From the NCBI GenBank assembly GCA_025058595.1, contig JANXEK010000003.1:4233-68232 (forward strand): DNA of 64,000 nucleotides. The letters are read 5' to 3'. Under the pieces are notes generated by a model. That model searched no databases. It had not been told where the DNA came from and saw only the letters and a program-made list of their open reading frames with translations. The translations under genes and the position numbers were made by a program. The stretch is from Candidatus Bathyarchaeota archaeon. GTDB lineage: Archaea > Thermoproteota > CALKCG01 > B24 > DRYS01. Shown piece by piece: positions 18,768-36,867 of the stretch. The first letter of the stretch is position 1, and every line of letters begins with the position of its first letter.

Positions 18768-18975
18768 ACAACCTACGGTATACTAAACCTTGATCCCACC
18801 TAAAAAGTTTTGTATCAAGGAGTATATGGAGGCTATCAGAACCATTACAGACTCTAGATCGAGAAAACCAGCCCTTCATCACTACTTATAAACGAGAAGC
18901 TCGGAGCACCGCTCAAATATATCTCCAGATCCAATTTTGGATGCTAACCAAGATTCCTTCATGTTACTCGGTATT

Positions 18976-20471: not shown

Positions 20472-20536
20472 ATGGATTTTGAGGTGATTATTAATGGCGG
20501 AGGTATGGAAATATTCATGGTCTACCCCCGGGGGGT
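20472..20536 (+). repeat. Copy A of a ~65-nt repeat ending in a C5G6 palindrome. The inverted partner is at 36801-36867.
   Basis: atggattttgaggtgattattaatggcggaggtatggaaatattcatggtctacccccggggggt is the exact reverse complement of 36801-36867 apart from homopolymer length (C5G6 versus C7G6). A partial related segment lies at about 20346-20370. Confidence 0.7.
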
Positions 20537-20785
20537 GGACCTACTCAAATATCCTCCCCCATATAATCCTATTCAGGTAACCTATATTCTCCGTTAGATT
20601 GGATAGCATCATAGTTCCTCGCTCGAGTAAAGGAGAATATCCGGGTGAAGAGATTCAAGATATTATCCAGTCTACACTCAGCTCCGTAGATTTTAGGGGG
20701 GATGAGTTAAGTACGTGTATGTAGGCTAGAACGATTAAATGAGCCTATAAGGTTATTCGGTAGACGTGATTAGGATATGTTGGAG

Positions 20786-20860
20786 TGGACCGGGAGGGAT
20801 TTGAACCCTCGACCTCCCCCGCGCCAAGGGGGCGATCATACCGGTCTGATCTACCGGCCC
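20786..20860 (-). tRNA. tRNA-Ala (anticodon GGC), 75 nt, intron-less, with no encoded CCA
   Basis: Manual fold of the reverse complement: acceptor GGGCCGG/CCGGTCC with the G3:U70 Ala identity pair, D stem GATC/GATC, anticodon stem CCCCC/GGGGG, loop TTGGCGC, variable AGGTC, T arm GAGGG-TTCAAAT-CCCTC, discriminator A. Confidence 0.85.
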
Positions 20861-20891
20861 GTCTACGGCTAGTAGTGTTAGGCTGGGGGCT

Positions 20892-20903
20892 CATAAACTT
20901 TAA
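20892..20903 (-). promoter_or_regulatory. Candidate TATA/BRE element for tRNA-Ala
   Basis: The reverse complement ttaaagtttatg lies about 32-43 nt upstream of the tRNA 5' end at 20860. Confidence 0.3.
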
Positions 20904-20920
20904 CCGGTCCTGGCTCGATT

Positions 20921-21109
20921 CTACCTGATCCTCTCTCCGTTGATCTTCCTATTTTTCCATGAGTATCTCGCTATCTTAGATGATTCTCCGTAGTGGCATG
21001 CTGCGCATCTTTTCTTCTTAACGTTATAGGATCTTCTCCCGCATCTACGGCATCTTATATGGATGGGTTCCCCTCCATACTTCCCCATAGAGGATGTTCC
21101 TTTAACCAT
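20921..21109 (-). CDS. rpl37e: 50S ribosomal protein L37e
   Basis: 62 aa with the C4 zinc ribbon [22 protein letters not shown] and a typical L37e N-terminus (GTSSMGK). Confidence 0.9.
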
Positions 21110-21116
21110 AGGGTGT

Positions 21117-21344
21117 TCAGCCTCCTACCGGTGATATTAGGATGACGTTATCCCCTCTTATTATGACGCTTCCAAGCTTAACGCCTTCGTTTCCGTCGGT
21201 AACATCCTCTGTTTTAGATAGGACTAGGTTTAGATGTTTATCGTAGCCTTCGAGTAAGCCTCGTAGAGCTTTACCTCCTTTAAGCTTAACTAGAACTATC
21301 TTACCAAGACTCTCTTCCAATACCATGAAAGTTATTTCGCTCAT
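21117..21344 (-). CDS. Sm-like archaeal protein (LSm/SmAP)
   Basis: 75 aa with the Sm1/Sm2 fold pattern ([25 protein letters not shown] ... [10 protein letters not shown]). The L37e-Sm gene pair is conserved in archaea. Confidence 0.85.
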
Positions 21345-21463
21345 GATCCCTACTTTAGAGGGAGATTATTATCTCCTTTAAAACTTTTCCTTCTACCAGT
21401 CATACATCTGTCCCCCGGTTTCTTGTAAAACGTTAAACCGTAGAGGTGATATAGACTGTAGGT

Positions 21464-21943
21464 ATGCGGTTGAAGCGGAGGGATGTTAAGCGTAGGGAGG
21501 GTGCTCTGCTACTGGAGAGGTTGAAGGCTAGGTTTAACCTTAGGATAGATCTTAAGGTGGAGAGGTACGAGGTGGTGGAGTCTGATGGTTTATCGATATA
21601 CATCCTAGATGGGAGACCCCTCCTATTCGAGGCTGATGGTGATGTGTACCCTACTCTATTCTTCGATGAAGCTATGAGTATATTACCGCGTGTAGTAGTG
21701 GATCGGGGTGCTATCCCCCATATATGTGACGGCGCCGATGTTATGGCTCCAGGTATAGTTAGGATCGAAGGATTATTCGATGAGGGTGGATTGGTAGCGA
21801 TCTGCGATGAAAGGTATGGTAAAATAATCGCTTTAGGTATAGCTTTGAAGGATAGCGAAGCTATTAGATCGATGGATAGAGGGAGAGCCATCAGGAATAT
21901 ACACTATGTAGGCGATAGGATTTGGAGGATAGCGAGGTTATAG
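21464..21943 (+). CDS. PUA-domain RNA-binding protein
   Basis: 159 aa. The C-terminal half (ICDGADVMAPGIV...LVAICDERYGKIIALGIA) matches a PUA beta-barrel pattern. Confidence 0.55.
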   Translation: MRLKRRDVKRREGALLLERLKARFNLRIDLKVERYEVVESDGLSIYILDGRPLLFEADGDVYPTLFFDEAMSILPRVVVDRGAIPHICDGADVMAPGIVRIEGLFDEGGLVAICDERYGKIIALGIALKDSEAIRSMDRGRAIRNIHYVGDRIWRIARL

Positions 21944-21995
21944 TAGCACCGGGCTGAGGGCTACCATATATCTTAGATCTAGCGTCGAAGTAGAA

Positions 21996-23165
21996 CTAAC
22001 TCTGTATATTCTCGAGGTTGAACTTTCTAGCTATCCTATCTAGATCGTCGTCATCTAGATAACCCTTCTTATTTTCAGCTATAGTTTTAACGTACGCTAG
22101 TATCTCTCTAGCTTTATCATCGTCAGGTAGCTTGTATCCCCTCCTAGCTAATAGGTATGATAATCCATGTGTACCTGAGGTTACGCCTAGAACTATACGC
22201 CAATCCCTACCTACGAGTTTAGGTGGGTAGGGTTGATAGGTTTCAGGATCCTTCAGTATACCATCCTGATGGATGCCAGATTGCACCGAGAATACATCGT
22301 AACCGGAGACTGGTTTAAACCTGTATAAAGGTATACGGGAGGCTTCAGCTACGTATAGGCTAGCATCTACAGCTTTAGATAGGTTAAACCTATCCGCACC
22401 GTAAAGCTCGTATATCAGTAGTAGTACCTCATCTAACGCTGCGTTCCCGGCTTTATCACCTAGACCGTTCCAGGTGGCGGATATAGATGAAGCTCCTGCG
22501 AGTATAGCTGAGATGGTGTTAGCTAAAGCTAGCCCTCTATCGTTATGATAGTGTACCTCTATAGGTATACCTCTAGAATGCTCCGCTAACACCTTCATCC
22601 TATTATAGGCGGCTATAGGTACGAGTACGCTTACGGTATCGCAATCCCTAATCCTATCTACATCGACCTCGGATAGTATCTTCACCAGCCTATCGATGGA
22701 GGTCCTAGTGGAGTCTTCTAGGTGGAGCGAAACCTTCAAACTATGCTCCCTACAATAGGATATAAGCTCTATACACGAGTATAGGAGATCCTCGAAGCTA
22801 CATCTAAACTTGCTTCTGAGATGTATATCTGAGAATCCTGCGGTTATAGATATCCATTCGAAATCATACTTTAAACATAGATCTATATCGCTCCTCCTAA
22901 GCCTATTCCAAACCTGAATCTTAGCGTTCCTTAAACCAATATCTTTGATCCCCTCTAGAAACCTCCTCTCCCTATCGCCATATCCGGTGAACACCTCTAT
23001 AAAATCTAACCCTACCTCATCGTCGTAAATAGCTATACGTAGCTTCTCATCCAACGTTAACGCAACGCCAGCCGCCTGCTCCCCCTCCCTAAGCGTAGAA
23101 TCTACTACTACGATATCCCTGGGATCCAGCTCGAACCCTAGGTAATCCTTGTTAAACTCCTTCAT
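21996..23165 (-). CDS. Homocitrate/(R)-citramalate/2-isopropylmalate synthase-family enzyme with an HMGL-like TIM barrel and no LeuA regulatory domain
   Basis: 389 aa. DSTLREGEQA at the N-terminus, plus the HxH metal motif (HYHNDRGLALAN) of the HMGL-like family. Confidence 0.75.
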   Translation of the reverse strand: MKEFNKDYLGFELDPRDIVVVDSTLREGEQAAGVALTLDEKLRIAIYDDEVGLDFIEVFTGYGDRERRFLEGIKDIGLRNAKIQVWNRLRRSDIDLCLKYDFEWISITAGFSDIHLRSKFRCSFEDLLYSCIELISYCREHSLKVSLHLEDSTRTSIDRLVKILSEVDVDRIRDCDTVSVLVPIAAYNRMKVLAEHSRGIPIEVHYHNDRGLALANTISAILAGASSISATWNGLGDKAGNAALDEVLLLIYELYGADRFNLSKAVDASLYVAEASRIPLYRFKPVSGYDVFSVQSGIHQDGILKDPETYQPYPPKLVGRDWRIVLGVTSGTHGLSYLLARRGYKLPDDDKAREILAYVKTIAENKKGYLDDDDLDRIARKFNLENIQS

Positions 23166-23332
23166 AGGCTATACAAGCCCCGTGCCTATAAAAAAGACGT
23201 AGACAGGTATATAATGTTTACTGAGTAAAACTCACATATATAACGTAGAAATATATGTATACCTCAAAGTATACCGTGGAAGTTGTGAGCATCACATATT
23301 CTATGAAGCCTAATCTTAGCGGATATCTCGAT

Positions 23333-23344
23333 AAAACTTAATAC
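23333..23344 (+). promoter_or_regulatory. Candidate TATA box for tRNA-Met
   Basis: aaacttaatact is centred about 33 nt upstream of the tRNA 5' end at 23373. Confidence 0.3.
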
Positions 23345-23372
23345 TCCCTAGAACCTAGATAAGATTACGGAA

Positions 23373-23510
23373 GCCGGGCTAGCTCAGCCGGTTAGAGCGC
23401 CAGACCCTACCTATAGGGGGGTTGAGGTGAGACTCATAATCTGGAGATAGCCCCTCGTATATGGAGGATGAGGCTACCAGAAGTCGGGGGTTCGAAGCCC
23501 CTGCCCGGCA
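23373..23510 (+). tRNA. Elongator tRNA-Met (anticodon CAT) interrupted by two introns at non-canonical positions. Intron 1 is about 23405-23432 (28 nt, between nt 31/32 or 32/33). Intron 2 is about 23445-23480 (36 nt, in the variable region, about 43/44 to 44/45).
   Basis: Manual fold gives exons: acceptor GCCGGGC/GCCCGGC, D arm GCTC-AGCCGGTTA-GAGC, anticodon stem CCAGA/TCTGG with loop CTCATAA, variable AAGTC, T arm GGGGG-TTCGAAG-CCCCT, discriminator A. The mature length is 74 nt versus a 138-nt gene. Exact splice junctions are ambiguous by 1-2 nt because of repeated A/C residues. Confidence 0.7.
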
Positions 23511-23513
23511 TCG

Positions 23514-23538
23514 GCTTGGGGGTTAAACCCCCGCCCGG
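23514..23538 (+). terminator. GC-rich hairpin GGC-TT-GGGGG-TTAAA-CCCCC-GCC immediately 3' of tRNA-Met. It is a possible processing or termination signal and resembles the tRNA 3' end.
   Basis: Perfect 5-bp G/C stem with a TTAAA loop, flanked by a GGC/GCC pair. Starts 4 nt after the discriminator base. Confidence 0.3.
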
Positions 23539-23696
23539 CCCCATTCAACCTCCACATATAATCCGGGTTTAAGCAGCGGTGCATAGAAACTTATCTATTA
23601 TACAGCTAAAGCGAGCAGCTATCTACGTACTAGCTATAAATATTAATATCTAGGGTGATGTGATACAATGTTCTGAGCTGTAGCTTAAGCTAGGGT

Positions 23697-24977
23697 ATGA
23701 GCTGGCTTTTCGATGTCGATAGGATGGTTATCGATACTAGAAGATCTAGTAGGTTATGCGTTCTATGTAAGGGTGCACATCTACTCTGCGGTAAGAATAG
23801 ATGTCCTATAGTGGTTAGAGCTAGCGTTATGTATGAGGCTGTAAGGTATTTCGATAAGCTAGATGTAGAGGGGTCGTCGCCTCCAGGGGTCTTCGTAGGT
23901 AGGTTCGGCTATCCTAGGGTGTATGTCGGGCCTTTAACACCGCCTTTCAAAGGTGATACACGGATACTCGATACGCCTGAATACTGGTTTGGTATGTCTA
24001 TAGAGGATATAGTTAGGTTTCGTAGCATACTCCTTAGAGGGGAGAAGCCTTTACATGTAGATTCAGCCTCCAACCCCGATGAACTCCTACAAACCCTTCA
24101 GGAGATAGCTATGTCTCAGAAGCCGGTCGATCTAGAGGTTAAACTAGCTAGGAAGCCTAGAGTATCCTTGATACTTGATGATGAGGTTCAGCCGCTAGGT
24201 GCATCTGCACCTATATCGAAGATTAGGTTGGAGGGGAATATCTACGTAGATAGACGTATAGAGGAAGCGTATTACGATAGGGATCTTAGAGCTGTAGACG
24301 CAGTCTTCGATCTATATAGATCTGGTGTCCCTGTGAGCTCTATACAGAAAGCTTTTAGTCTAGGATTACTCGGTGTAGGATCGAACCGTAGACTGGTACC
24401 TACTAGGTGGAGTATAACAGCGGTAGATTCCATGATATCCGAGAAGCTTCTCGGAAACGTTAAACGTTATCCACCTATCCCAGTATACCTACTCTTCGAA
24501 TCGGTATACCTAGATAACAGGTTCGAGATACTGATGATACCGGGCTTCTGGAGCTACGAATCTATAGAGGCATGGTATCCTAAAACCGTGTGGAACCCAG
24601 ATGGTAGGATGCCTATCGTAGAGGGTGATTGGGAGGGGTACCATGGTAGGAGAAGCTACGCTGCTATCGGTGGATGCTACTACGCTGCTAGGCTCGCCGT
24701 CGCGGAGTATCTAGACTCTATCAGACGGCAGGCATCGGTCTTGATACTGAGGGAGGTTCATCCAGGGTATATAATGCCTGTAGGCGTGTGGCATGTAAGG
24801 GAGCATGTACGTAACGCTTTGAAGAGGAAGCCTATGGTATACCAGAGTATAGGGGAGGCTTTATCTAGGATCTCTGAAAGGCTTGAGATACCTTTAGAGA
24901 TATGGGTGGAACATAGCCGTCTACTTAGACGAGAACTCTATCAGCAGAGGATCCGAAGCTATGTATCTGGATCGTAG
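23697..24977 (+). CDS. nreA: NreA-like archaeal DNA repair protein (Nre family)
   Basis: 426 aa. N-terminal cysteine cluster LCVLCKGAHLLCGKNRCPIV recalled as the Nre N-terminal zinc motif. An archaea-specific family, usually about 420 aa. Confidence 0.5.
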   Translation: MSWLFDVDRMVIDTRRSSRLCVLCKGAHLLCGKNRCPIVVRASVMYEAVRYFDKLDVEGSSPPGVFVGRFGYPRVYVGPLTPPFKGDTRILDTPEYWFGMSIEDIVRFRSILLRGEKPLHVDSASNPDELLQTLQEIAMSQKPVDLEVKLARKPRVSLILDDEVQPLGASAPISKIRLEGNIYVDRRIEEAYYDRDLRAVDAVFDLYRSGVPVSSIQKAFSLGLLGVGSNRRLVPTRWSITAVDSMISEKLLGNVKRYPPIPVYLLFESVYLDNRFEILMIPGFWSYESIEAWYPKTVWNPDGRMPIVEGDWEGYHGRRSYAAIGGCYYAARLAVAEYLDSIRRQASVLILREVHPGYIMPVGVWHVREHVRNALKRKPMVYQSIGEALSRISERLEIPLEIWVEHSRLLRRELYQQRIRSYVSGS

Positions 24978-25043
24978 CTATTCTACGGATCGATCTTCAG
25001 ATCGGGCGATCGTACATCGCGGATGGAGCCTCTTATCGCAACG

Positions 25044-25053
25044 TTAAAATATG
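25044..25053 (+). promoter_or_regulatory. Candidate TATA box for ppsA
   Basis: ttaaaatatg lies about 46-55 nt upstream of the ATG at 25099. A purine-rich aggtggag sits 8-14 nt before the start. Confidence 0.3.
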
Positions 25054-25098
25054 ACTATACCCAGTCTAGAGTATACGTCTCTAATAGTATCGAGCTAG

Positions 25099-27540
25099 GT
25101 GGAGACTATGGGTAAGGAGACAGCTCTAACTCTATGGTTCGAGGAATTGGGTAAGAGGGATGTGGGGCTCGTAGGAGGTAAGAATGCGAATCTAGGTGAG
25201 ATGATAAACGCGGGGATACCTGTACCCCCAGGGTTCGCCGTCACGGCTTACGCATATAAGAAGTTCATAGAGGAGACGGGGATAGCCGGTAAGATCTACG
25301 ATATACTTAGGGAGACGATAAAGGATCCGAAGGATCCTACACAGTATGAGGAGGCTTCGCGTAAGGTTAGAGCTCTGATAGAATCCGTAGAGATGCCTGT
25401 AGATATACGTAGAGCTATAACCGAATACTATAGGAAGCTATGTATGAGGATAGGTACGGATTCTGTATTCGTAGCCGTCAGATCGTCTGCTACCGCCGAG
25501 GATCTACCAGATGCTAGCTTCGCAGGACAGCAGGAAACCTTCCTGAACGTTAGAGGGGAGGATGAGGTTGTTAGGTATGTACAGAGATGCTGGTCTAGCC
25601 TATTCACTCCTAGAGCTATATTCTATAGGACTCAGAAGGGTTTCGCTCATGAACGCGTATTGATAAGCGTAGCTGTTCAGAAGATGGTTAACAGTAGATC
25701 TGCAGGCGTTATATTCACGATACACCCGGTGACTGGTGATAGGGATAAGATAGTTATAGAGTCTGTGTGGGGTCTAGGAGAGGCTATAGTATCTGGAGCT
25801 GTAACACCGGACAGATTCATAGTCGATAAGAAAACCTTCGAGATACTGGAGAAGGAGATAGCTGAGAAGACTGTCGAGTATGTACGCGATCCGAGGACGG
25901 GTAAAACGGTACACTTAGAGGTGCCATCGGAGAGGAGGAATGCTCCGAGCTTAACGGATGAGGAGGCTAAGTATCTCGCTAAACTCGCTAAAAGGATAGA
26001 GGATCACTACGGTCATCCTCAGGATATAGAGTTCGCGGTAGATAGAGATCTACCTTTCCCGGAGAATATATTCATAGTTCAATCGAGACCCGAGACTGTA
26101 TGGAGCTTTAAACCTAGGGAGGAGGTTAAAGCCGAGAAGCCTGGTGCTACCGTTGAACGTAGGGTTGTCCTTAAAGGTTTACCAGCTAGCCCAGGTGTAT
26201 ACGCCGGTAGGGTTAAGATAGCTTTAACCCATGAGGAAGCTGCTAAGGTTATGGAGAAAGGCGATATACTGGTTACTAAGATGACGAACCCGGATTGGGT
26301 TCCATATATGAGGATAGCTGGAGCTATAGTAACGGATGAAGGTGGAATGACGTGTCACGCCGCTATAGTATCTAGGGAGCTTGGGATACCGTGTATAGTG
26401 GGTACGAAGAACGCTACGCAGATCCTAGCGAACGGAGGATACTATACAGTCGATGCTAAGACGGGTGTGATCTATGAAGGTATAATCGAAGAGGCGGTTA
26501 AACCTGTAGCTCCTATAACGCCTACGGCACCGGCGGTAGGAGTGTTAGCGGCTCCTACACCGATTACGGCTACTAAGATCTACGTTAACATATCTATACC
26601 GGATGTAGCTGAGAAGATAGCTACGGAGACCCAGGCTGATGGTGTAGGTCTCCTGAGAGCTGAGCATCTGATGCTTAGCGTAGGTAAGCATCCGAGGCTA
26701 CTTATCGAGGAAGGCGGGGAGCAGCGTATGGTAGATGCCTTCGCCGAAGGTATAAGGATGGTAGCTCAAGCGTTCTATCCTAAACCGGTCGTCTATAGAT
26801 TCCTAGATTTCAAGCCTGACGAGTTCCTAGCGTTACCTGGTGGGGAGAAGTATGAGAGGGAGGCTGGGCATGTAGGGCCTAACCCGTTGATAGGTTATAG
26901 AGGGGCCTTCAGATACATCAAAGAGCCGGATATATTCAGGCTTGAATGTAGAGCTATAAGGAAGGTTAGGGAGGAGTATGGGCTTAAGAATGTATGGGTT
27001 ATGATACCTTTCGTTAGAAAGGTGGAGGAGCTGCGTCTAGCTAAGAGGATTATGGAGGAGGAGGGTCTTGTTAGAGGACCAGATTTCAAGGTGTGGATAA
27101 TGGTGGAGGTGCCGAGCACGGTTCTACTGATAGATAAGTTCATAGAGGATGGTATAGATGGTGTAAGCTTCGGTACAAACGATCTTACGATGCTGATACT
27201 AGGTATAGATAGGGATGACGCCTCGGTTCAGGAGATATACGATGAGAGGAATCTAGCTGTTTTGAGAGCTTTAAGCCATGTTATAAGGATATGTAGGAGG
27301 CATGGGGTTACCACCAGTATATGCGGGCAAGCTCCATCCAACTATCCCGAGGTGGTAGAGTTTCTAGTAAGGGAGGGAGCGACAAGTATATCGGTGAACC
27401 CAGATAAAGTAGTGGAGACGAGGCTACTCGTAGCTAGCATAGAGCAGAAGATATTATTGGAGGAGCTTAGAAACCTGAGGGAGAGGAGCGAATCGGAGAA
27501 GCCGTTCTTCAAACCTGAGTGGGCTAGGGAGCTAGGTTAA
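25099..27540 (+). CDS. ppsA: Phosphoenolpyruvate synthase (pyruvate, water dikinase)
   Basis: 813 aa with an N-terminal ATP-grasp (GGKNANLGEM), a central phosphohistidine domain (GGMTCHAAIVSRELGIPCIVG) and a C-terminal PEP-utilising TIM barrel. Confidence 0.9.
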   Translation: METMGKETALTLWFEELGKRDVGLVGGKNANLGEMINAGIPVPPGFAVTAYAYKKFIEETGIAGKIYDILRETIKDPKDPTQYEEASRKVRALIESVEMPVDIRRAITEYYRKLCMRIGTDSVFVAVRSSATAEDLPDASFAGQQETFLNVRGEDEVVRYVQRCWSSLFTPRAIFYRTQKGFAHERVLISVAVQKMVNSRSAGVIFTIHPVTGDRDKIVIESVWGLGEAIVSGAVTPDRFIVDKKTFEILEKEIAEKTVEYVRDPRTGKTVHLEVPSERRNAPSLTDEEAKYLAKLAKRIEDHYGHPQDIEFAVDRDLPFPENIFIVQSRPETVWSFKPREEVKAEKPGATVERRVVLKGLPASPGVYAGRVKIALTHEEAAKVMEKGDILVTKMTNPDWVPYMRIAGAIVTDEGGMTCHAAIVSRELGIPCIVGTKNATQILANGGYYTVDAKTGVIYEGIIEEAVKPVAPITPTAPAVGVLAAPTPITATKIYVNISIPDVAEKIATETQADGVGLLRAEHLMLSVGKHPRLLIEEGGEQRMVDAFAEGIRMVAQAFYPKPVVYRFLDFKPDEFLALPGGEKYEREAGHVGPNPLIGYRGAFRYIKEPDIFRLECRAIRKVREEYGLKNVWVMIPFVRKVEELRLAKRIMEEEGLVRGPDFKVWIMVEVPSTVLLIDKFIEDGIDGVSFGTNDLTMLILGIDRDDASVQEIYDERNLAVLRALSHVIRICRRHGVTTSICGQAPSNYPEVVEFLVREGATSISVNPDKVVETRLLVASIEQKILLEELRNLRERSESEKPFFKPEWARELG

Positions 27541-27585
27541 ACATAAGTTTAAACCCTCCTACACACAATTTTTATAATCAGTTTT

Positions 27586-27990: not shown

Positions 27991-28099
27991 AACTTAAGCT
28001 TATCATCGTACGTAGTAGACGGTTGGGTGTATTCGGATGCTACGTTGAACCGGAGGTTTAAGCTGAGGTAGACGGTATACTAGTAAGGTATGGTGGGGG

Positions 28100-28859: not shown

Positions 28860-29078
28860 GAAGTTTCCAACCTCAAACTACCAACCCATACGAGCGGTAT
28901 ATTAGCTTTCCGGTGGATATAGATAACGAATCGAACATAGATTACTCAAGGTATCGTTATCCTTCTAGGAATCTATGCATACCGAAGCAAGGTATCTACG
29001 AGGCGGAGTATACTCCGCAGCTGAAGCGATCGGTGTAAGTATAACGTTTAAGCTTCGGGAGGATAACTGATTATAGCG

Positions 29079-30020
29079 GTGTTCGAATATTTGCCTATAG
29101 TAGATGGATATGGACGTAGGCTATCCACCCTTAGGATAGCTGTTACGAGTGAATGCAACCTTAGATGTGTATACTGCCATAGGGAGGGGGAGGTTTACGA
29201 TAGCGATAGGAGAGGTGACGCTAGTATAGATGAGCTTCTATCCATAGTTGGTATCGGCGTCGAGCTTGGGTTGGATAGGGTTAAGCTTACGGGAGGCGAA
29301 CCGCTCCTAAGGAGGGATATAGTGGATCTAGTATCCTCGATACATGGATTGAAGGGTGTGGAAGAGGTTTCGATGACCACCAACGGTGTGCTGCTATCGG
29401 ATTACGCGTATAAGCTTGCGGAAGCCGGGTTGAAGCGTGTAAACGTCACGGTTAATACTTTGGATAGGGATACCTATAGGATGATCACAGGTTTCGACCT
29501 CCTACATAGGGTTCTGGATGGGGTCGAATCGGCTATCGAAGCAGGGTTAAACCCTGTTAAGATTAACATGGTTCTATTGAAGGGTATGAACGAAGATGAC
29601 ATCCTAGATATGGCTAGATACGCCGCTAAGGTTGGAGCGATACTACAGGTTATAGAGCTTGAGAGAGCAGGGGTAGCGGATGGATGGGTATACGATAGGC
29701 TCCACGTACCTCTAGATAGGGTTGAAGATCTCCTATCTAGGATATCTGTAGATATGTACTATAGAGGCATCCATAGCAGGCCTAGATACATACTGCCCGA
29801 CGGTGTGGAGGTGGAGCTTGTTAAACCTATGCATAACCCAGATTTCTGTAGATACTGCGATAGGCTAAGGGTTACTTCTAGAGGCGAGCTTAAACCATGC
29901 CTACTAAGATACGATAACCATGTAGATATATTGAAGGCTATAAGGAGCGGAGCGGATAGAGAGTACCTCAGGAAGCTTTTCCTAGAAGCTATAGCTAGGA
30001 GGAAGCCATACTTCCTATGA
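29079..30020 (+). CDS. moaA: GTP 3',8-cyclase MoaA (molybdenum cofactor biosynthesis, radical SAM)
   Basis: CNLRCVYCH radical-SAM cluster motif at the N-terminus, GGEPLLRRD, and a C-terminal second-cluster cysteine set (CRYCDRLRVTSRGELKPC). 313 aa. Confidence 0.85.
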   Translation: MFEYLPIVDGYGRRLSTLRIAVTSECNLRCVYCHREGEVYDSDRRGDASIDELLSIVGIGVELGLDRVKLTGGEPLLRRDIVDLVSSIHGLKGVEEVSMTTNGVLLSDYAYKLAEAGLKRVNVTVNTLDRDTYRMITGFDLLHRVLDGVESAIEAGLNPVKINMVLLKGMNEDDILDMARYAAKVGAILQVIELERAGVADGWVYDRLHVPLDRVEDLLSRISVDMYYRGIHSRPRYILPDGVEVELVKPMHNPDFCRYCDRLRVTSRGELKPCLLRYDNHVDILKAIRSGADREYLRKLFLEAIARRKPYFL

Positions 30021-30021
30021 G

Positions 30022-31308
30022 CTATACCCGTGAGATCTTAACTTCTAGGAAATGCGTCGCGCATGAGATGCATGGATCGTATGCTCTAACGAGCATCTCG
30101 CTTCTACGGGCTATCTCATAATCGCTTCTATCCGTATAGTCTTTAAGGTATTCTAGTAGATCGGCTTCGATATTAGCTGCGTTTTGACATGTAGGTGGAG
30201 CTATCGATGTATACGTAACCACGCCGCTATCGTTCAACCGGTAGCTATGGAAGTTTAAGCCTCTAGGAGCTTCGGTTATAGCTGAAGCTTCACCTGCTCT
30301 AAGCTTCGCTTCAACATGCGGCCTACCCTCTAGAGGCTTCTCATCTATGATCATCAAAGCTTTATCTATTAACGTTATTATCTCGGCTAGCCTAGCTATA
30401 TTGGATGCGAACGGGTTGAAGCATGGAAACCTGAACATACTAGATGAGAGTATATCCTTAGCATCATCCGAGAGGTTGCGGTAGTTTATGTTTACACGTG
30501 GAAGGGGTCCGACCATAAAGCTACTTCTACCCTTAACGTATGAATGCTTAGCGGTGGAATACCCTACCTCAACCTCGTATACCTGACGTCTATAATCGTC
30601 CTCCGTCAACTCTAACCCCTCGGTAGATTTGACGATACCATAGTTCACGGGATAATCTCCTCTATCGTAGAAGGCTATATGCTCAGATCTACGTTCGAAT
30701 CTAGGATAGTCGAGACTGGATATGAAGCTTGAATGTTTCAGAGCTAGATTCCTAGCTTCGATAAGCGTATCCTTAAACCTCTTCAACCTCTCTCTTGTAG
30801 GTATAGATGTAAACCCTCCTACGATCGTAGATACTGGATGCACGCTCCTACCACCTATGATCTCGACTAGACTATCGCCTACCTCCTTAATCTTGAAGCC
30901 GGCTTTAACTATATCAGGTTGATCCTTAGCCATAGCTATTATATCGGGGTGACCGGTATAGTCTGGTAGAGCCATAGCGAATAGGTGTAGAGCATGGCTA
31001 CTCAAGATACCGCCTATAGCTGTAAGCTCCCTAAGATACCGTATATGCTCAGGAACCTCTAAACCTAGTATCTTCTCGATAGATTTCAAAGCAGTTATCT
31101 GATGAGTGACAGGGCATACACCGCATATCCTAGAGACTATCTCATGCACCTCGTAATACCTTCTACCGATTAGGAATGCTTCGAAAAACCTGGGAGCCTC
31201 GTAGATCCTAAACTTTAGATCCTCTATAGTATCGCCTCTCATCTTTATCTCGAGAGCACTCTTCCCTTCAACCCTAGAGATATACGGTACATCTACTATC
31301 CTAGCCAA
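30022..31308 (-). CDS. [NiFe]-hydrogenase large-subunit-family protein. Its size resembles group 3 (FrhA/sulfhydrogenase-alpha-like).
   Basis: N-terminal Ni-binding motif RICGVCP, internal EAPRG, and a C-terminal DPCISCATH followed by only 9 residues. 428 aa. No small-subunit or maturation-protease gene is adjacent. Confidence 0.75.
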   Translation of the reverse strand: MARIVDVPYISRVEGKSALEIKMRGDTIEDLKFRIYEAPRFFEAFLIGRRYYEVHEIVSRICGVCPVTHQITALKSIEKILGLEVPEHIRYLRELTAIGGILSSHALHLFAMALPDYTGHPDIIAMAKDQPDIVKAGFKIKEVGDSLVEIIGGRSVHPVSTIVGGFTSIPTRERLKRFKDTLIEARNLALKHSSFISSLDYPRFERRSEHIAFYDRGDYPVNYGIVKSTEGLELTEDDYRRQVYEVEVGYSTAKHSYVKGRSSFMVGPLPRVNINYRNLSDDAKDILSSSMFRFPCFNPFASNIARLAEIITLIDKALMIIDEKPLEGRPHVEAKLRAGEASAITEAPRGLNFHSYRLNDSGVVTYTSIAPPTCQNAANIEADLLEYLKDYTDRSDYEIARRSEMLVRAYDPCISCATHFLEVKISRV

Positions 31309-31473
31309 GTCGCCGACCCCCTGACAGACGTAGCGTAGAACTCTTCCACCATACAGATGAAGGGTATCAGCTTAAGCATCTGAAAATCCTCCTACCGATA
31401 CTACGGATACCATACGTGATAGGCTACCTAGATATAACGCTACCAGATATAAAATATATAGGAGGAGCAGATC

Positions 31474-33315
31474 CTATACGTTACATACCGGTTCTAGACG
31501 ATCCGATAAAACCCTAAACCCTACAGCTAGCGAGGGGCATACCTGCACACATAGACCACACCTACTACACAATCCGCTTTCGAATACAAACCTACCTGAG
31601 AATGTTAACGCTCCCGATGGACATATATCGATGCATAAACCGCACCTCGCACAGAATAGGGATCTAACTAAAGGTTTTAAGAGATACTTCAACCCATCAC
31701 CCCTCGCTATGATGGTAGCCTCCCCCCTCTCCACGTTAACGTATATACGGGAGCTACCGGTTGAAGCTACAGCTATATGGCCCCTCGATCTGAAATCTAT
31801 ACCGTACACATAGCATGAAGCATCCATGAGATATAGATCGAACCCTCTAGGTATACTTAGCTTCACAACGCTACCGTCGCATAACCTCGTCTTCAAGCAT
31901 CTAACCCTACTATCCACATCGATCCTGATGGGCGGATAGATCCTGAAGGAACTCGATATCTTCGACGGCATACCAACCCACCTCCAGAGATGCCTCTCAA
32001 CGTATACTCGATCGTATCCAAGCTTAGAAGCCCATACATCTATATAGCTTAGCCATCTATACCATAGATCTCTATGCAGCCTTTCAACCTCCCTAAACTC
32101 GGCTACGTTACAGTATGGGCATAGATAGCATCCTATCCTATCGAATCCTTCACGATACAACGGGTTAGCACAGGTATCAAGCTTCACCCTCCTCAAGTAT
32201 AGCCATACATGCATCATACTCCAATCGTTTATAGGTGCACAGTAGATTACGTTAGTTAGAAGCCTATTACGCCCTACAGGTTTAGAGCGGCGGCGACTCC
32301 TCGATTCAAACCTCCTCTGCCCTATGAAGCTTACAGCTTCACGAAACATCCTCCTATACAATCTACTCGTAGGTGTAAGCTTACACAGCTTACAACACCA
32401 TCTATAATCCCTAGCCGGTGGACCGTAGACGTCTAGATAGCTCCAGAAAGCATCGCCTGCAGATGCTTCTAGGATATCTAGAGAGAATCTATCGGCGATC
32501 ATACGGACGTTATCTATAGTCTCAGGTAGCTCAAGACCGGTATCGTTGAATACTAGCTGTGGATCCAACCCTGCTTCTAACACTATCGATAACGTAGCTA
32601 AACTATCCTTACCGCCAGAATACGCTACCGTGAGATGAGATGAACCGAACCTCCCCCCCATCTTAACCGTAAACCTACAAGCTCTAGATCTAGCTAGCTC
32701 CACCCCCTCGATATTCGCTTTAAGAATATCATCCAAGCTTCTACGTTTAACGATAGACTCGCAGCATTCGCTTCCACCCCACGTCTTAACAACGTATATA
32801 CGCCTATCGATCGACTCAGCTAAACCTACCGGCTGCCCATCCCTATCGACGAGAGCTATATAGCCATCGCTAAAGCTACTAGAAGCTGGTAGATCTTCGA
32901 GAAATCCTTTACCCTTAGGTTTAGAGTATAGCTTGATAGCAGGTAGCAAGCCTTCTTCGAGAAGCATCCTACAAAGCCATCTAAACGGCTTCAACCTCCA
33001 CTTCAACGTATACAGATCGAAGAATGTATGCGCTACGATAACCCCGCCTACGATTACTTCGAAAGCTTCATCCATATACGGTAACCTATTAACGACTATA
33101 GGCATACCGTCTAATCCGAGACTACGGAGATCCGTATCGAACGATCCCCTCAACCCTTCATCTATACGACGTAGATCACCCTCGAAAGCAGGTCTAGGAT
33201 CTGCTAAACCTGTAAGCTCTACATCCACACCTAAGCCTCCGCATATACCGCATACCCTCTGCAGCAACGGAACACCGCAATTCAGGCACCACGATATCCG
33301 TCTCGATCTAGGCAT
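31474..33315 (-). CDS. Multidomain Fe-S protein with an N-terminal Zn-ribbon, a PAPS-reductase/PP-loop (SGGKDS) domain carrying CC...CxxC-type cysteines, and a C-terminal 2x[4Fe-4S] ferredoxin domain
   Basis: CLNCG...CGICG at the N-terminus. The PP-loop is VAYSGGKDSLATL. Cysteine clusters RWCCKLCK and CYLCPYC. The C-terminus has CARCGLCIDICP and CSRCGLCVQVCP. Confidence 0.6.
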   Translation of the reverse strand: MPRSRRISWCLNCGVPLLQRVCGICGGLGVDVELTGLADPRPAFEGDLRRIDEGLRGSFDTDLRSLGLDGMPIVVNRLPYMDEAFEVIVGGVIVAHTFFDLYTLKWRLKPFRWLCRMLLEEGLLPAIKLYSKPKGKGFLEDLPASSSFSDGYIALVDRDGQPVGLAESIDRRIYVVKTWGGSECCESIVKRRSLDDILKANIEGVELARSRACRFTVKMGGRFGSSHLTVAYSGGKDSLATLSIVLEAGLDPQLVFNDTGLELPETIDNVRMIADRFSLDILEASAGDAFWSYLDVYGPPARDYRWCCKLCKLTPTSRLYRRMFREAVSFIGQRRFESRSRRRSKPVGRNRLLTNVIYCAPINDWSMMHVWLYLRRVKLDTCANPLYREGFDRIGCYLCPYCNVAEFREVERLHRDLWYRWLSYIDVWASKLGYDRVYVERHLWRWVGMPSKISSSFRIYPPIRIDVDSRVRCLKTRLCDGSVVKLSIPRGFDLYLMDASCYVYGIDFRSRGHIAVASTGSSRIYVNVERGEATIIARGDGLKYLLKPLVRSLFCARCGLCIDICPSGALTFSGRFVFESGLCSRCGLCVQVCPSLAVGFRVLSDRLEPVCNV

Positions 33316-33395
33316 AAACCAACCGCATCCCTCTAATATAGAAGAAGTATGGAGGAGATAGGATTTTAAACTATCGAATACAGGTTTATCGTGGC

Positions 33396-34454
33396 TTGAC
33401 AGCTATACGTAGATCAGGCCAGTTCAAGGATAGAGATTTCGTAGAGACACCTGAGCGTATATTCTTCTGCGTCGTAGGAGAAGTCCACCCTGATGGATAC
33501 GTAGTAGCTTACCCGAGGTATATCGCTACAGAGAATACCTCCACCTTATGGAGAGATAGGGAGGGTTTAGCCTACGAGAGGTTGTTGAAGGTTTACAGTA
33601 TGCTATCCTTGAAGAACGCTCTCAAGATACTAGATAGGTATCCATACTATGTCAAGTATCTAGATGCATGGGGGGTTGAGATGCCGTGCATCCCTATCGA
33701 AAGGATAGTTAGGCATCTTAAACCCGAAGAGCGGCTAGAGGAGATCGTACATCGAGGACCGAAAGATACACTCGAAGATAAGCTTATAGAGCTTGTAGAT
33801 ACACTTTCAAGCATATCAGGTATACCGTGGAGATCGTTCGGTGTAACAGGCTCCATACTATTGGGGATACATAACCCTACATTCTCCGATATAGATCTCA
33901 CCGTATACGGTTTAGAGGAGTCTCTAAAGGTTAAGGAGGCTATCCTAGATCTCAAGAGGAGCGGCGTCGTCGAGGAGCTTCCACTAGATCATATCGAGAG
34001 ATCGGTTTACGAGAAGCTGAAACACTACCCTATAGGTGTAGATGATTTGAGGAGGATATACGGTAGGATGTGGCAGAGAGGAGTCTTCAAAGATACCTAC
34101 TTCTCGGTGCATCCTGAACGTCTATTCGTAGACGAACGCTACGGGGAGAAGATGTATAGATCTATCGGTATAGCGAGGGTTAAAGCCGAGATAGTAGACG
34201 ATAGGGAGGGTATATTCCTACCAGCGGTATACTCTATATCCGTTTCAGAATGGCTTGAAGGCGATCGTAGATACGATGTCGAGGAGCTTACATCTTTCGA
34301 TGGATTCCTATCGTCGGCTTTCCATATAGGAGATAGGATCGAGGTGAAAGCTAAGCTAGAGGAGGTTTACGATAGGAGGAGGGGTAGGATCTATCATAGG
34401 CTAGTTTTAGGTACGCTAGAGTATGCAGGTGTAGAGTATGCGAAGATCCTCTAA
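33396..34454 (+). CDS. Predicted nucleotidyltransferase-fold (Pol-beta superfamily) domain protein of unknown function
   Basis: 352 aa with a central hG[GS]x9-13DhD motif (VTGSILLGIHNPTFSDIDLTVYG). The flanking domains are unassigned. Confidence 0.4.
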   Translation: MTAIRRSGQFKDRDFVETPERIFFCVVGEVHPDGYVVAYPRYIATENTSTLWRDREGLAYERLLKVYSMLSLKNALKILDRYPYYVKYLDAWGVEMPCIPIERIVRHLKPEERLEEIVHRGPKDTLEDKLIELVDTLSSISGIPWRSFGVTGSILLGIHNPTFSDIDLTVYGLEESLKVKEAILDLKRSGVVEELPLDHIERSVYEKLKHYPIGVDDLRRIYGRMWQRGVFKDTYFSVHPERLFVDERYGEKMYRSIGIARVKAEIVDDREGIFLPAVYSISVSEWLEGDRRYDVEELTSFDGFLSSAFHIGDRIEVKAKLEEVYDRRRGRIYHRLVLGTLEYAGVEYAKIL

Positions 34455-34459
34455 ACCCT

Positions 34460-35260
34460 TCAGATCTGCGGTAGATACCTCTTCAAAGCTCTGAATACAG
34501 CTAAACCTATCAGTGTAGCTATAACCGTCATCGTAACCCTCTCCACAGCAGATACTGGTAGCATAAACATGAATAGGTCGCCAAGCCCTTTGAGCGGTAT
34601 ATTGGGTAGACCCATCCTCACGGCTAAGACGCCTAGAGCGTTCAACGTATCGCGGATAGTCTTCATAGGAATATACAGTCCTACACCTAGTATGAACATC
34701 AGGTTACCCCACATATGATCAGCCATAATCCCTGCGAAGAACGCTACGAGGAGAGCTACGATAGATCTATAGCTTCTACTAGATTCCTCGAGCCAGCTAT
34801 GAATCCTCCTATTGAAGATCAAAGTTAAAACTACGGCTGTAGCATGTAGGGGTAGAGGGTAGAACGGAGCTTCGAACCCTATAGGCGTAAGATACCAGCA
34901 GCCTACCAGTATAGCTAGTATAACCGCAGCTTTCATCCATCCTAGGTTAGGTCTCCTAGCTATATAGCCTGAGACGTATGCAGAGAAGCCTCCAGCAGGT
35001 ATAGTGAGGAGGCCGAAGATAGTTTGAGGAGGTATAATCCATACTATGATGTTAGCGATCACGGCCGTTAGAGATCCTAGGATCGGACCTAGAATTAAAC
35101 CCATAATCGGGTAGAGGATAACGGTGGGAGATATACTACCCTGACCTTGAGGTAAACCTACTATAGGTATATTCGGTAGAAGCTTCGCTAAAGCTATAGA
35201 TAAAGCTGTGAATACAGCTACTACGGCTACCCTTCTAGCCGATACCCTATGTACATTCAT
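34460..35260 (-). CDS. Integral membrane protein of unknown function
   Basis: 266 aa with about 7 TM segments. Downstream of the radical-SAM gene in the same orientation. Confidence 0.45.
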   Translation of the reverse strand: MNVHRVSARRVAVVAVFTALSIALAKLLPNIPIVGLPQGQGSISPTVILYPIMGLILGPILGSLTAVIANIIVWIIPPQTIFGLLTIPAGGFSAYVSGYIARRPNLGWMKAAVILAILVGCWYLTPIGFEAPFYPLPLHATAVVLTLIFNRRIHSWLEESSRSYRSIVALLVAFFAGIMADHMWGNLMFILGVGLYIPMKTIRDTLNALGVLAVRMGLPNIPLKGLGDLFMFMLPVSAVERVTMTVIATLIGLAVFRALKRYLPQI

Positions 35261-35330
35261 AGCATCCAGTGTAATCTACTACACAGCACATATAAATGTT
35301 TACATAGTAGCTTATAGATTGGATACCGGT

Positions 35331-36323
35331 TCAACCTTCGATCCTAGCTAGATATACGTTATGCTTACAGCCTATCATCCGCAGATATACTCGTCTACCT
35401 ATAAGCTCCTCACCTACACCTACCACCGTTATAACCCTACCTTTAGCTACCGCTAACAGCTCCCCTCTAAGCCAACCTGGAGCTACGATCTCAGCTTCCA
35501 CCTTCATACCGACGGTTAGAGGGGATGGTATCATAGGTCTAGGGTGAATACCGAAATCCTCAGCTCCCAGTACGAGTTTAACGTTGTAGATCCTCTCTAA
35601 TCTACGTAGCTCTCTATAGAATCTACCCCAGGAGAATGGCTTAACACCATACGGCTTCCTACCCCTCTTATGTACTTCATACTTCTGTATACCTAGGGGA
35701 GGCCACCTCTTACCAGCACCTATCCTCAAACTATACTCTATTATCTCCGGTATATCCTGATCGTTAACGCCAGGTATCCATACCGGTGCTACGAGTAGAT
35801 CTAAACCATCCATACCGGCGGCGTATTCAGCTACAGTTTTAACCCTATCCACATCGTAGGATTCATCCCCGGCTATAAACCTAGCCTTCTCCGGATCCAG
35901 AGTATCCATAGATAGGTTTAACCTAGATAGGCCTGCATCCCTTAGATCCTCAAGCTTCCCCTCATCTAGAAGGATACCGTTACTCTGCATCGATACAACC
36001 TCGACGCCATCTATAGATGAAATCTTCTGAACTAGATCGACGAGGTATGGGTAGGTCGTAGGCTCCCCGACTGTATCTATATGAAGCTCTATACCTTTAG
36101 ACCCCTTATACCTTACAACCTCTAAAACCCATTCGTACAGGTAATCCGGATCCGCTATATACTCGGTCGATCTAACCCTAGATCTAGGTCCAGCATCTGT
36201 AGAGCAATAGATACATGAAAGGTTACATATCGTCGTAGGTCTAACCTGAAGTAGATTCGTCCCCCTATCTACCACCCCGAACGCTATACACCCTATAAGC
36301 GGTATCCGACTATCTCTATCCAC
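35331..36323 (-). CDS. Radical SAM protein with a C-terminal TRAM-like OB-fold
   Basis: CNLSCIYCST CxxxCxxC motif. The C-terminal MKVEAEIVAPGWLRGELLAVAKGRVITVVG resembles a TRAM domain. There is no MTTase N-terminal domain. Confidence 0.65.
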   Translation of the reverse strand: MDRDSRIPLIGCIAFGVVDRGTNLLQVRPTTICNLSCIYCSTDAGPRSRVRSTEYIADPDYLYEWVLEVVRYKGSKGIELHIDTVGEPTTYPYLVDLVQKISSIDGVEVVSMQSNGILLDEGKLEDLRDAGLSRLNLSMDTLDPEKARFIAGDESYDVDRVKTVAEYAAGMDGLDLLVAPVWIPGVNDQDIPEIIEYSLRIGAGKRWPPLGIQKYEVHKRGRKPYGVKPFSWGRFYRELRRLERIYNVKLVLGAEDFGIHPRPMIPSPLTVGMKVEAEIVAPGWLRGELLAVAKGRVITVVGVGEELIGRRVYLRMIGCKHNVYLARIEG

Positions 36324-36800
36324 CCTTACAGTACGACGCAGCTCCCGAAACCACCTCGATATATGCTGATACTATGCTAATACAGATATAGCGTAAGATC
36401 GGATAAAACGTTACCACCTACGATACCGGTAGATGACGGAGAAACAACCTCCACGATAGTTGTAGTTTAAAACTTCAAGATATAGCGGGGCCTTCGTCGA
36501 ACAGATACCTAGGAACCTAGGTTTAGCCACACCTCCGATAAACTTTCAGAACCTATATATTCTCTATCCCTCTATCGGATCGAGCATAGCTGGAGATACA
36601 GGATGGAAAACCTCAGATACTCGAATACCCTATCCATCCCATTTAGAGGGATCGACGAGACTTTAACCGAAGCTTCACATATACTTTGCTCGATACCTAG
36701 AAGGATAAGTTAACCATCCTAGCTCCACACCCATCTAGCATAACCCCACTCCTCCAACATCCATAGAAAACCCTTAAGCTTTCGACCTATACCTTCATCT

Positions 36801-36867
36801 ACCCCCCCGGGGGGTAGACCATGAATATTTCCATACCTCCGCCATTAATAATCACCTCAAAATCCAT
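36801..36867 (-). repeat. Copy B of the ~65-nt repeat, the inverted partner of 20472-20536
   Basis: acccccccggggggtagaccatgaatatttccatacctccgccattaataatcacctcaaaatccat equals the reverse complement of copy A except for C/G homopolymer lengths. Confidence 0.7.

Follow-up and report, generated by a model that had tools for sequence, protein, structure and literature searches.

Features of the locus

The window (the whole 64-kb stretch of DNA that was analyzed) contains two copies of a short repeat in opposite orientation, here called copy A and copy B (Table 1). The host is an uncultured hot-spring archaeon. Copy A lies between an ABC-transporter gene and tRNA-Ala, 250 nt from the 3' end of the tRNA gene. 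Copy B lies in extra DNA upstream of a radical SAM gene. The interval contains two tRNAs, L37e, LSm, a PUA-domain gene, an HMGL-like synthase, Nre, ppsA, hjc, arcadin-1, a MoaA-like gene, a NiFe hydrogenase subunit, a PAPS-reductase-like gene, an ECF transporter component, and the radical SAM gene. The second tRNA contains an intron (23373-23510). tRNA-Ala, L37e, ppsA, hjc, and the MoaA-type gene, which a preliminary description of this DNA had listed for the interval, are all present.

Table 1. Features of the repeat pair and its surroundings (window coordinates)
Feature	Position	Strand	Description
Extra DNA, ABC-transporter gene to 3' end of tRNA-Ala	18768..20784	.	Lineage-specific; HEPN, MNT ORFs, and copy A region
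orfX, decayed orphan ORF containing copy A	20224..20724	+	Open for 120 codons in the sister species
Copy A	20472..20541	+	58-nt core at 20472-20529; C5G6 at 20525-20535; imperfect right palindrome arm TGGACC
Core-gene interval	20542..36797	.	16.3 kb; same order and orientation in all relatives examined
tRNA-Ala(GGC)	20785..20860	-	Border between conserved and variable DNA
Expanded spacer, hyp114/S3Ae genes to radical SAM gene	36349..37122	.	~773 nt; holds copy B
Copy B	36798..36867	-	58-nt core at 36810-36867, then perfect palindrome TCTA-C7G6-TAGA at 36798-36818; tract length uncertain

The repeat pair

An inverted-repeat search of the window retrieved two 64-nt arms (20472-20535 and 36804-36867) separated by 16,268 nt. 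The pair had been described as a perfect repeat of about 65 nt. The identity is perfect over a 58-nt core, ATGGATTTT...GGTCTACCCCC, which has no mismatch between the copies, and the full 64-nt arms are 98% complementary. Beyond the core, both copies run into a C/G homopolymer palindrome. Sub-patterns of the 58-mer gave 0 matches in 100 dinucleotide shuffles. The edges of the repeat are sharp, and the flanks of copy A are unrelated to those of copy B. With the repeat masked, flank-only profiles of one locus did not retrieve the other, and the core alone is common to both. The blastn search with the repeat returned no match other than the pair. The "partial relative" reported at 20346-20370 proved to be a chance 11-mer (blastn E=1.4), and it lies in a segment absent from the sister species.

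The repeat is real and not an artifact. It was found in three independent assemblies, namely, the window and two NCBI MAGs. A Logan contig (SRR15826900) stops exactly 30 nt (k-1) into the repeat, which is expected at a real graph branch where a repeat has two contexts. The inverted pair of the preliminary description is thus borne out by three assemblies and a read-graph branch. Contiguous sequence runs across copy B in the window and in a MAG from a second strain (MAG2; GCA_026414345.1, contig L086). The NCBI record GCA_033581435.1 has a 99-N scaffold gap exactly at the center of the copy B palindrome. That gap and the assembly-dependent tract length are what would be expected if copy B were a chimeric join or a collapse at a palindromic homopolymer. 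The probability of such an artifact is close to negligible, since unique sequence lies on both sides of copy B, the same junctions occur in the second strain within flanks that carry independent SNPs and a 40-nt indel, and the Logan contig ends k-1 nt inside the repeat.

Copy A and the tRNA-Ala side

The extra DNA next to tRNA-Ala contains HEPN (19230-19685), fragmented MNT ORFs, and a 1.1-kb ORF-poor region that carries copy A. The HEPN and MNT genes are a toxin-antitoxin remnant. The distance from the ABC gene to tRNA-Ala is only 214 nt in the relative L093, and two other relatives (L091 and L092) have other genes there. Homology to these three loci begins only at ~20772-20779.

The sequence of copy A is identical in the two NCBI MAGs. 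An ortholog occurs at the same place in the sister species (L012:337-396) with 81% identity. No difference separates copies A and B over 58 nt. Copy A is therefore ancestral, and copy B is a recent copy of it in derived DNA. The preliminary description had taken perfect identity as a sign of recent copying, and the 81% identity of the sister-species ortholog agrees with this.

The copy A region is 47 to 63% identical to the sister species, versus 86 to 94% for coding genes. Within this region, conservation between the species is highest over the 5' 45 nt of the repeat (87% versus ~63%). The conserved patch extends ~20 nt to the left of the repeat boundary in the alignment, and the left boundary therefore does not look like a natural element end. 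All four copies in the two strains are identical, and the copy B flanks of those strains differ by 3 to 4%. The chance of 0 differences in 58 nt at 3.5% divergence is ~0.13, which is not significant. The conserved 5' patch and the four identical copies together hint weakly at constraint or homogenization.

Copy A lies within orfX. In the window, in-frame TGA codons interrupt orfX at 20458 and 20485, the C/G tract is 1 nt too short to keep its frame, and 16 nt are deleted near 20572. It matched no Pfam or PHROG family and had no homologs. Mismatches between orfX and the sister species show no bias by codon position (36/113, 28/113, and 32/111). No coding constraint is detectable at copy A. The copies had been called ORF-free. 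This is roughly right, except that some pipelines call short orphan ORFs over the repeat, with 78 aa in the sister species and with 44 aa in MAG2. These small ORF calls are probably spurious.

Copy A contains an SD-like sequence, GAGGTGAT (20481-20488), followed after 5 nt by an ATG (20494-20496), 11 codons, and then the C/G tract. In the sister species, a short orphan ORF starts at this ATG. The repeat could be a functional cis module, either a portable translation-start cassette with a slippery C/G tract that would phase short ORFs in and out or a promoter or protein-binding site common to the two loci. We consider such a module quite unlikely. It would account for the strong SD-like sequence and ATG inside the repeat, for the gene callers that start both the 78-aa and the 44-aa ORFs at that ATG, for the conservation of the 5' 45 nt, and for a tract of 11, 12, or 13 nt of which only 12 keeps the ORFs open. 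However, the sister species has TAGATGGT in place of the SD-like sequence, which is thus not conserved, and no codon-level constraint is detectable. The downstream peptides at copy A, at copy B, and in the sister species are unrelated or decayed, and all of the ORFs are orphans. The tract length at copy B is confounded by the assembly gap. A binding site would need far less than 58 nt of perfect identity.

Copy B and its spacer

The spacer that holds copy B is ~140 nt in three groups of relatives (L087-L090 and L171/L172), and it has ~600 extra bases here. Between the strains it differs by 3 to 4% and a 40-nt indel. The relatives do not provide a clean empty site at copy B, as the whole spacer differs, beyond the 65 nt of the repeat. 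By these alignments, the sites of both copies are lineage-specific, fast-evolving, derived, unconstrained DNA.

The palindrome and C/G tract

The palindrome at copy A is GGTCTA-C5G6-TGGACC (20519-20541), and that at copy B is TCTA-C7G6-TAGA. These are the only junctions of at least four C and at least four G in the window. The tract is 11 nt at copy A. At copy B it is 13 nt in the window (C7G6) or 12 nt in MAG2 (C6G6), and one of the length calls sits at the scaffold gap of the public record. The reported difference between C5G6 and C7G6 is thus unreliable and assembly-dependent, and annotations based on the present assemblies should not treat it as biology. The short overlapping ORFs stay open only with a 12-nt tract.

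Fold prediction places a terminal hairpin (10 bp, GC-rich) at one end of the repeat only and leaves the remainder unstructured, with no significant fold (z of ~-1 to -2.3). The sister species lacks this hairpin.

A contingency locus has a slippery tract in or upstream of a functional gene, and the tract length varies in populations. The C/G tract resembles contingency loci and the mononucleotide-run frameshifts of hyperthermophilic archaea in that it is 11 to 13 nt, differs in length between copies and strains, and sets the frame of overlapping short ORFs (PMC4471258). It differs from contingency loci in that the ORFs carry no sign of function and one length call falls in an assembly gap. Slippage by one base within mononucleotide runs accounts for a prominent class of mutations in hyperthermophilic archaea without MutS/L (PMC4471258).

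The 16-kb interval

Every relative examined (L012 and L087-L093) has the core genes of the interval in the same collinear arrangement, which agrees with the earlier view that the copies do not mark the boundaries of a transposon. The pair had also been proposed to mediate inversion of the interval. This is possible in principle, and a single orientation was found in three assemblies and all relatives. Both orientations were looked for, and the window, the two NCBI MAGs, and the eight related loci are all alike.

Invertible segments of the Hin/Gin or tyrosine invertase type have a recombinase gene adjacent or inside, and both orientations occur in populations. No recombinase, resolvase, or integrase family was found among the called genes of L001, L003, and L004. 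It is very improbable that the copies serve as crossover sites through which the core-gene segment inverts frequently or in a programmed manner. The 58 nt of perfect inverted identity suffices for homologous recombination, and the Holliday-junction resolvase gene hjc lies within the interval, which may be a coincidence. Against this, the three assemblies have one orientation only, the relatives are all collinear, the called genes within 10 kb on either side include no recombinase or invertase Pfam family, and flipping housekeeping genes has no apparent benefit.

A duplicated phase-variable functional cassette formed by the 58-mer and palindrome, or a crossover pair for a naturally flipping 16-kb segment, is taken together highly unlikely. 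If the cassette were true, slippage of the tract among 11, 12, and 13 nt would switch the short ORFs on and off as homopolymer-based phase variation. It would also be a case of de novo small-gene birth via a duplicated translation start in an uncultured thermophilic archaeon.

Comparison with known elements and RNAs

Two copies of the repeat were found in 74 kb of this genome (the 64-kb window and a further 10 kb), and there may be further copies beyond it. One 22-mer of the repeat had no exact match in genome and metagenome collections. The full 58-mer and a 27-nt degenerate consensus had no exact match in a viral collection, and blastn with the repeat and its flanks found nothing in phage or plasmid collections.

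The hallmarks of MITEs are terminal inverted repeats, a flanking target-site duplication, and many dispersed copies. The repeat lacks terminal inverted repeats: its 5' end is ATGGATTTT..., its 3' end is ...GGGGGGT(A/G)GA, and its sole inverted repeat is the palindrome at one end. The flanks contain no direct repeat that would mark a target-site duplication (copy A, ...GATTATCT / CCTACTCA...; copy B in reverse complement, ...ACCAATTC / TGAAGGTA...). PATE or REP elements derived from IS200/IS605 have subterminal hairpins at both ends or occur as clusters of REP hairpins, and they have a cognate Y1 transposase or RAYT. The repeat has a hairpin at one end only, with no hairpin pair or REP cluster. 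No Y1 transposase or RAYT was found in the Pfam labels of genes within 10 kb on either side.

The whole window was searched against Rfam 15 in gathering mode, with no match to the repeat. In E-value mode, the two loci returned tRNA-Ala and chance matches with E of at least 0.035, below the gathering scores. The Infernal/Rfam check proposed for an ncRNA thus gave no match even in permissive mode. A C/D box scan found one weak, nonconserved candidate outside the repeat.

Two other assignments were rejected. Sites for integration at tRNA genes (att) are direct repeats, one of which overlaps the tRNA 3' end, and they bracket foreign DNA and an integrase. The copies here are inverted, neither overlaps tRNA-Ala, and the interval consists of conserved collinear core genes. 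Archaeal replication origins have several ORB elements around an AT-rich unwinding region, near orc1/cdc6 or whiP. The repeat, compared with the ORB consensus, is present as a single copy per locus in DNA with a GC content of 42 to 43% versus a window mean of 44%, and no Orc1/Cdc6 family was found among the neighboring genes.

The preliminary description favored a dispersed small element (MITE-like, a regulatory site, or an ncRNA). Two copies in 74 kb, the lack of terminal inverted repeats and of a target-site duplication, and the absence of an Rfam match do not support that proposal. There is likewise no stable fold beyond the terminal hairpin, which is absent in the sister species. The repeat could instead be a low-copy, lineage-specific element (MITE-, REP-, or PATE-like) that is mobilized in trans, with copy A as the source of copy B and the GC hairpin as its recognition structure, as in IS200/IS605 derivatives, which use single-strand hairpin ends in this way. 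This is possible but unlikely. The sharp boundaries, perfect identity, small size, and terminal hairpin point to it. Both copies reside in variable DNA between genes, copy A next to a tRNA gene, and the copy count covers 74 kb of the genome. However, there are no terminal inverted repeats, the hairpin is at one end only, and the flanks (TTATCT/CCTACT at copy A and CAATTC/TGAAGG at copy B) contain no target-site duplication or common target motif. The left boundary lies within the patch conserved with the sister species, there is no clean empty site at copy B in relatives, only two copies occur in the 74 kb, and the patterns tried had no exact match in public collections.

Like the SM elements of Sulfolobus and other archaeal MITEs, the repeat is small, noncoding, sharply bounded, near-identical, and intergenic. 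Unlike these MITEs, it lacks both terminal inverted repeats and a target-site duplication, and only two copies were found. It shares with REP and PATE elements a GC-rich end hairpin on a short extragenic repeat, and those elements also lack terminal inverted repeats and target duplications. It differs from them in having one hairpin, no conserved target tetranucleotide, no sign of multiple copies, and no associated Y1 transposase identified. Should the repeat prove to be multicopy or transcribed, it would represent a new small element for a lineage in which no mobile elements have been characterized.

Proposed origin of the pair

The explanation that we prefer, with about an even chance of being right, is that the pair arose by a recent one-off nonreciprocal copy (an ectopic gene-conversion or repair-templated patch) of ~65 to 70 nt of functionless DNA. 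We infer both the copying mechanism and the lack of function. The repeat probably has no function. The source is copy A, inside a decaying orphan ORF in variable DNA beside tRNA-Ala. The copy would have been deposited inverted into an already expanded, fast-evolving spacer upstream of the radical SAM gene. One end of the patch coincides with the perfect GC-rich palindrome GGTCTA-Cn-Gn-TAGACC, which can extrude as a 10-bp hairpin or cruciform. The extent of the patch may have been set by a break, stall, or template switch at this structure, and its opposite end would be an arbitrary point 58 nt away.

Ectopic gene-conversion and templated-repair patches and quasipalindrome template switching in bacteria and yeast are alike in giving a short nonreciprocal inverted copy from a nearby locus. 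On one side the copy stops at a palindrome able to form a hairpin, and it has neither element ends nor a target duplication. Classical quasipalindrome events act inside the palindrome, whereas here 58 nt moved 16 kb with no detectable flanking homology, and the product alone is seen. We know of no demonstrated mechanism in archaea for the transfer of a 58-nt inverted patch without flanking homology, which counts against the preferred explanation.

Under a one-off copy, the remaining properties of the pair would be passive consequences. The two copies would offer a substrate on which the 16-kb segment could invert by homologous recombination, the homopolymer would slip (11, 12, or 13 nt across copies and strains), and short-read assembly would run into trouble there. 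The importance for biology is small. The pair neatly illustrates how a compact archaeal genome can have short junk patches copied from one variable spacer to another. The GC palindrome with its homopolymer core breaks short-read assemblies, and the gap in the public scaffold is exactly there.

Geometry of the repeat pair

A repeat search of the window recovered an inverted pair with 64-nt arms that are 98% complementary and 16,268 nt apart, which bears out the inverted pair of about 65 nt given in the preliminary description. The initial 58 nt (ATGGATTTTGAGGTGATTATTAATGGCGGAGGTATGGAAATATTCATGGTCTACCCCC) are identical in copies A and B, and sub-patterns of this 58-mer occurred 0 times in dinucleotide shuffles of the window. 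Identity begins abruptly at the ATG end. The opposite end passes into a palindrome centered on a C/G homopolymer. Junctions of at least four C and at least four G residues occur in the 64 kb only at copies A and B. A supposed partial relative at 20346-20370 was merely an 11-mer (blastn E=1.4) in a segment missing from the sister species, and it was dismissed as chance. No third copy was present in the window or in the following 10 kb of the contig.

Features of the repeat pair, its two neighborhoods, and the interval between them, in window coordinates
Feature	Position	Strand	Details
HEPN gene, then nucleotidyltransferase (MNT) ORF fragments	18976-19685	minus	HEPN, 151 aa; fragments, 33-62 aa
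Imperfect local palindrome	19834-19864		about 32 nt, 87.5%
Copy A	20472-20535		palindrome GGTCTA-C5G6-TGGACC
tRNA-Ala(GGC)	20785-20860	minus
Intron-containing tRNA gene	23373-23510	plus	138 nt; Rfam tRNA model, 40.2 bits, E=5e-07
Arcadin-1 family gene (PF18653)	28518-28859	minus
Radical SAM gene	35331-36323	minus
Indel relative to GCA_026414345.1	36520-36559		40 nt, in the B spacer
Copy B	36804-36867		palindrome TCTA-C7G6-TAGA
99-N gap in JAVQTF010000001.1	between 36808 and 36809		L001 19224-19322
Two antisense ORFs	37163-37529	minus and plus	114 aa (minus), 115 aa (plus)

Presence of the repeat in other assemblies

The window is 99.87-99.98% identical to scaffold JAVQTF010000001.1 (L001) of MAG GCA_033581435.1, a near-identical but separate assembly that NCBI labels 'Nitrososphaerota archaeon.' This scaffold has a 99-N gap at the exact center of the copy B palindrome. 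The contig to the left of the gap ends in ...TCTA-C6-G, and the contig to the right begins with C6G6-TAGACC.... A second MAG, GCA_026414345.1, contains a copy A identical to that of the window. It spans copy B without a break and reads C6G6 there, versus C7G6 in the window's assembly. With a gap at this point in one public record and a C6G6 reading in another, the difference between C5G6 and C7G6 noted earlier for the two copies is untrustworthy. Around copy B, the flanks in the second MAG show 3-4% divergence and a 40-nt indel relative to those of the window. The divergence of the B spacer between these two assemblies compares with about 1% in adjacent genes.

A Logan contig from SRR15826900 begins with precisely 30 nt of repeat sequence and continues into the copy A flank. 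This overlap equals k-1, as expected at a branch of a k=31 graph. The second MAG and the Logan branch show that the repeat is real and occurs in two sequence contexts. The copy B center is a scaffold gap in one assembly and is read through in another, and it is barely credible that copy B is an assembly artifact.

Copy A and its ortholog in the sister species

Copy A lies 250 nt past the 3' end of tRNA-Ala(GGC), in a region of about 2 kb between this tRNA and an ABC-transporter gene. In one relative (L093), just 214 nt separate the tRNA and the transporter gene, and two others (L091 and L092) carry different genes between them. Homology of the window with all three starts only at about 20772-20779. 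The short or different content in these relatives indicates that the copy A region is derived DNA. Within the extra DNA are a HEPN gene, fragments of MNT ORFs, and a 1.1-kb stretch with no gene annotations. The HEPN and MNT genes are a decaying toxin-antitoxin pair in tRNA-Ala-linked variable DNA, and the pair is missing from L093. The imperfect local palindrome lies in the ORF-poor part of this region.

The nearest species in the genome collection is Ca. Bathyarchaeia JZ-1_202007_bins_68 (locus L012; ppsA, 94% amino acid identity). The A region is only 47-63% identical between the window and L012, whereas coding genes reach 86-94% and other spacers 51-83%. L012 contains an ortholog of the repeat that is 81% identical overall and 87% identical across the 5' 45 nt, so copy A is the ancestral copy. 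Copy A differs from this ortholog at 12 of 64 positions and is identical to copy B. Copy B is thus a recent copy of A or the product of conversion between the two, which are two of the causes that the preliminary description had offered for their perfect identity.

A frame of 120 codons runs open across the repeat in L012, where NCBI calls a 78-aa protein starting at the ATG that occupies repeat position 23-25. In the window, this ATG is preceded by an SD-like GAGGTGAT. The window version of the frame (orfX) contains two TGA codons, requires +1 nt in the C/G tract, and carries a 16-nt deletion. Substitutions by codon position were 36/113, 28/113, and 32/111, which shows no bias. No family or homolog was found for orfX or its upstream part. 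A protein-coding repeat was rejected in this frame, which is open in the sister species yet shows neither codon-position bias nor homologs, and in the ATGGATTTT frame, which has TAG at codon 4 in that species. The sole outside match to a coding reading was to P0124, a repetitive 989-aa protein, and was spurious. We treat the orfX region as a pseudogene or junk DNA. It is improbable that the repeat is a functional SD/ATG/homopolymer module or a promoter module. Functional readings stay open through two weak hints of constraint, neither of them statistically compelling: no other patch of the A region is as well conserved as the repeat's 5' 45 nt, and the four copies found in the two strains are all identical.

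Copy B and its spacer

Copy B lies in the spacer between hyp114/S3Ae and the radical SAM gene. This spacer is about 773 nt in the window versus about 140 nt in three groups of relatives, whose radical SAM proteins are 85% (L087-L089), 83% (L090), and 78% (L171/L172) identical. The short spacers indicate that the long spacer of the window is derived; no alignment between the two was possible. Outside the repeat, the B spacer had no match in the window, any fetched locus, or the phage collection. The two antisense ORFs listed for this side of copy B overlap almost fully and are conserved in relatives. The 114-aa product, an orphan neighbor of copy B, had no homologs in a word-indexed search. NCBI annotates one strand, and JGI annotates the other.

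Relationship of the copies and origin of the pair

The flanks of copies A and B are unrelated. Profiles built from the A flanks of the window and L012, with the repeat masked, placed the B locus seventh (E=2.5), and homology beyond the repeat was rejected. An nhmmer alignment stretched past the repeat into the flanks, and Smith-Waterman comparison gave a z of about 2.6 for both the left and the right flanks. The marginal Smith-Waterman scores reflect sequence composition. When the window is aligned with L012, conservation reaches about 20 nt left of the repeat's left boundary, so this boundary does not mark the natural end of an element. On the opposite side, the repeat is bounded by the palindrome.

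The preliminary description suggested a MITE-like element, a regulatory site, or an ncRNA. The MITE-like reading is not supported: copies A and B have no terminal inverted repeats or target duplications, and the window and the next 10 kb contain just two copies. Searches for an exact 22-mer gave 0 matches in GTDB species genomes or JGI metagenomes, and an exact pattern scan of IMG/VR gave none for the patterns tried. A low-copy mobile family is unlikely. Att sites or transposon ends were rejected because the copies are inverted and their interior consists of collinear core genes, in line with the earlier view that the pair is not a transposon boundary. The ncRNA suggestion was rejected: Rfam searches in both gathering and permissive modes returned nothing, no C/D boxes were convincing, and no fold was significant except a 10-bp terminal hairpin that is missing in L012. 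A viral or plasmid origin of the spacers was rejected, with no blastn or pattern matches in the phage, plasmid, and IMG/VR collections; the plasmid collection was queried only with the copy A repeat and its flanks. A replication origin or ORB element was also rejected, with a single copy at each locus, no Orc1/Cdc6 neighbor, and no AT-rich dip.

All three assemblies show the 16.3-kb interval in one orientation, and it is collinear in L012, whose contig stops short of the copy B locus, and in L087-L093. No inversion of it is visible in any of these; the preliminary description had suggested that the inverted copies could mediate one. No recombinase genes were found among the neighbors. An inversion switch is very improbable.

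Our preferred reading, at about even confidence, is that a single, recent ectopic event copied a patch of functionless DNA and so produced the pair, with one end set by the GC palindrome. This hairpin- or cruciform-prone palindrome may have defined one end of the copied patch. The repeat would then have passive effects, as a potential recombination substrate, a slippery homopolymer, and an assembly breakpoint. The homopolymer is regarded as slippery because frameshifts in mononucleotide runs form a prominent class of mutation in hyperthermophilic archaea lacking MutS/L (PMC4471258). Though real, it is an ordinary repeat of low copy number, one more example of an event of an already known type.

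Other features of the 16-kb interval

The intron-containing tRNA gene lies in a long spacer from an HMGL-like synthase gene to Nre, which is well conserved at 83% identity with the sister species. It was not picked up by ARAGORN or the Rfam gathering-mode filters. Its putative anticodon appears to be CAU, and it is followed by a GGGGGTTAAACCCCC hairpin. The interval also contains an arcadin-1 family gene; depositors' labels for the MAG that carries it vary between Nitrososphaerota and Bathyarchaeota. The ppsA gene shares 78% identity with its counterpart in Ca. Wolframiiraptor gerlachensis.
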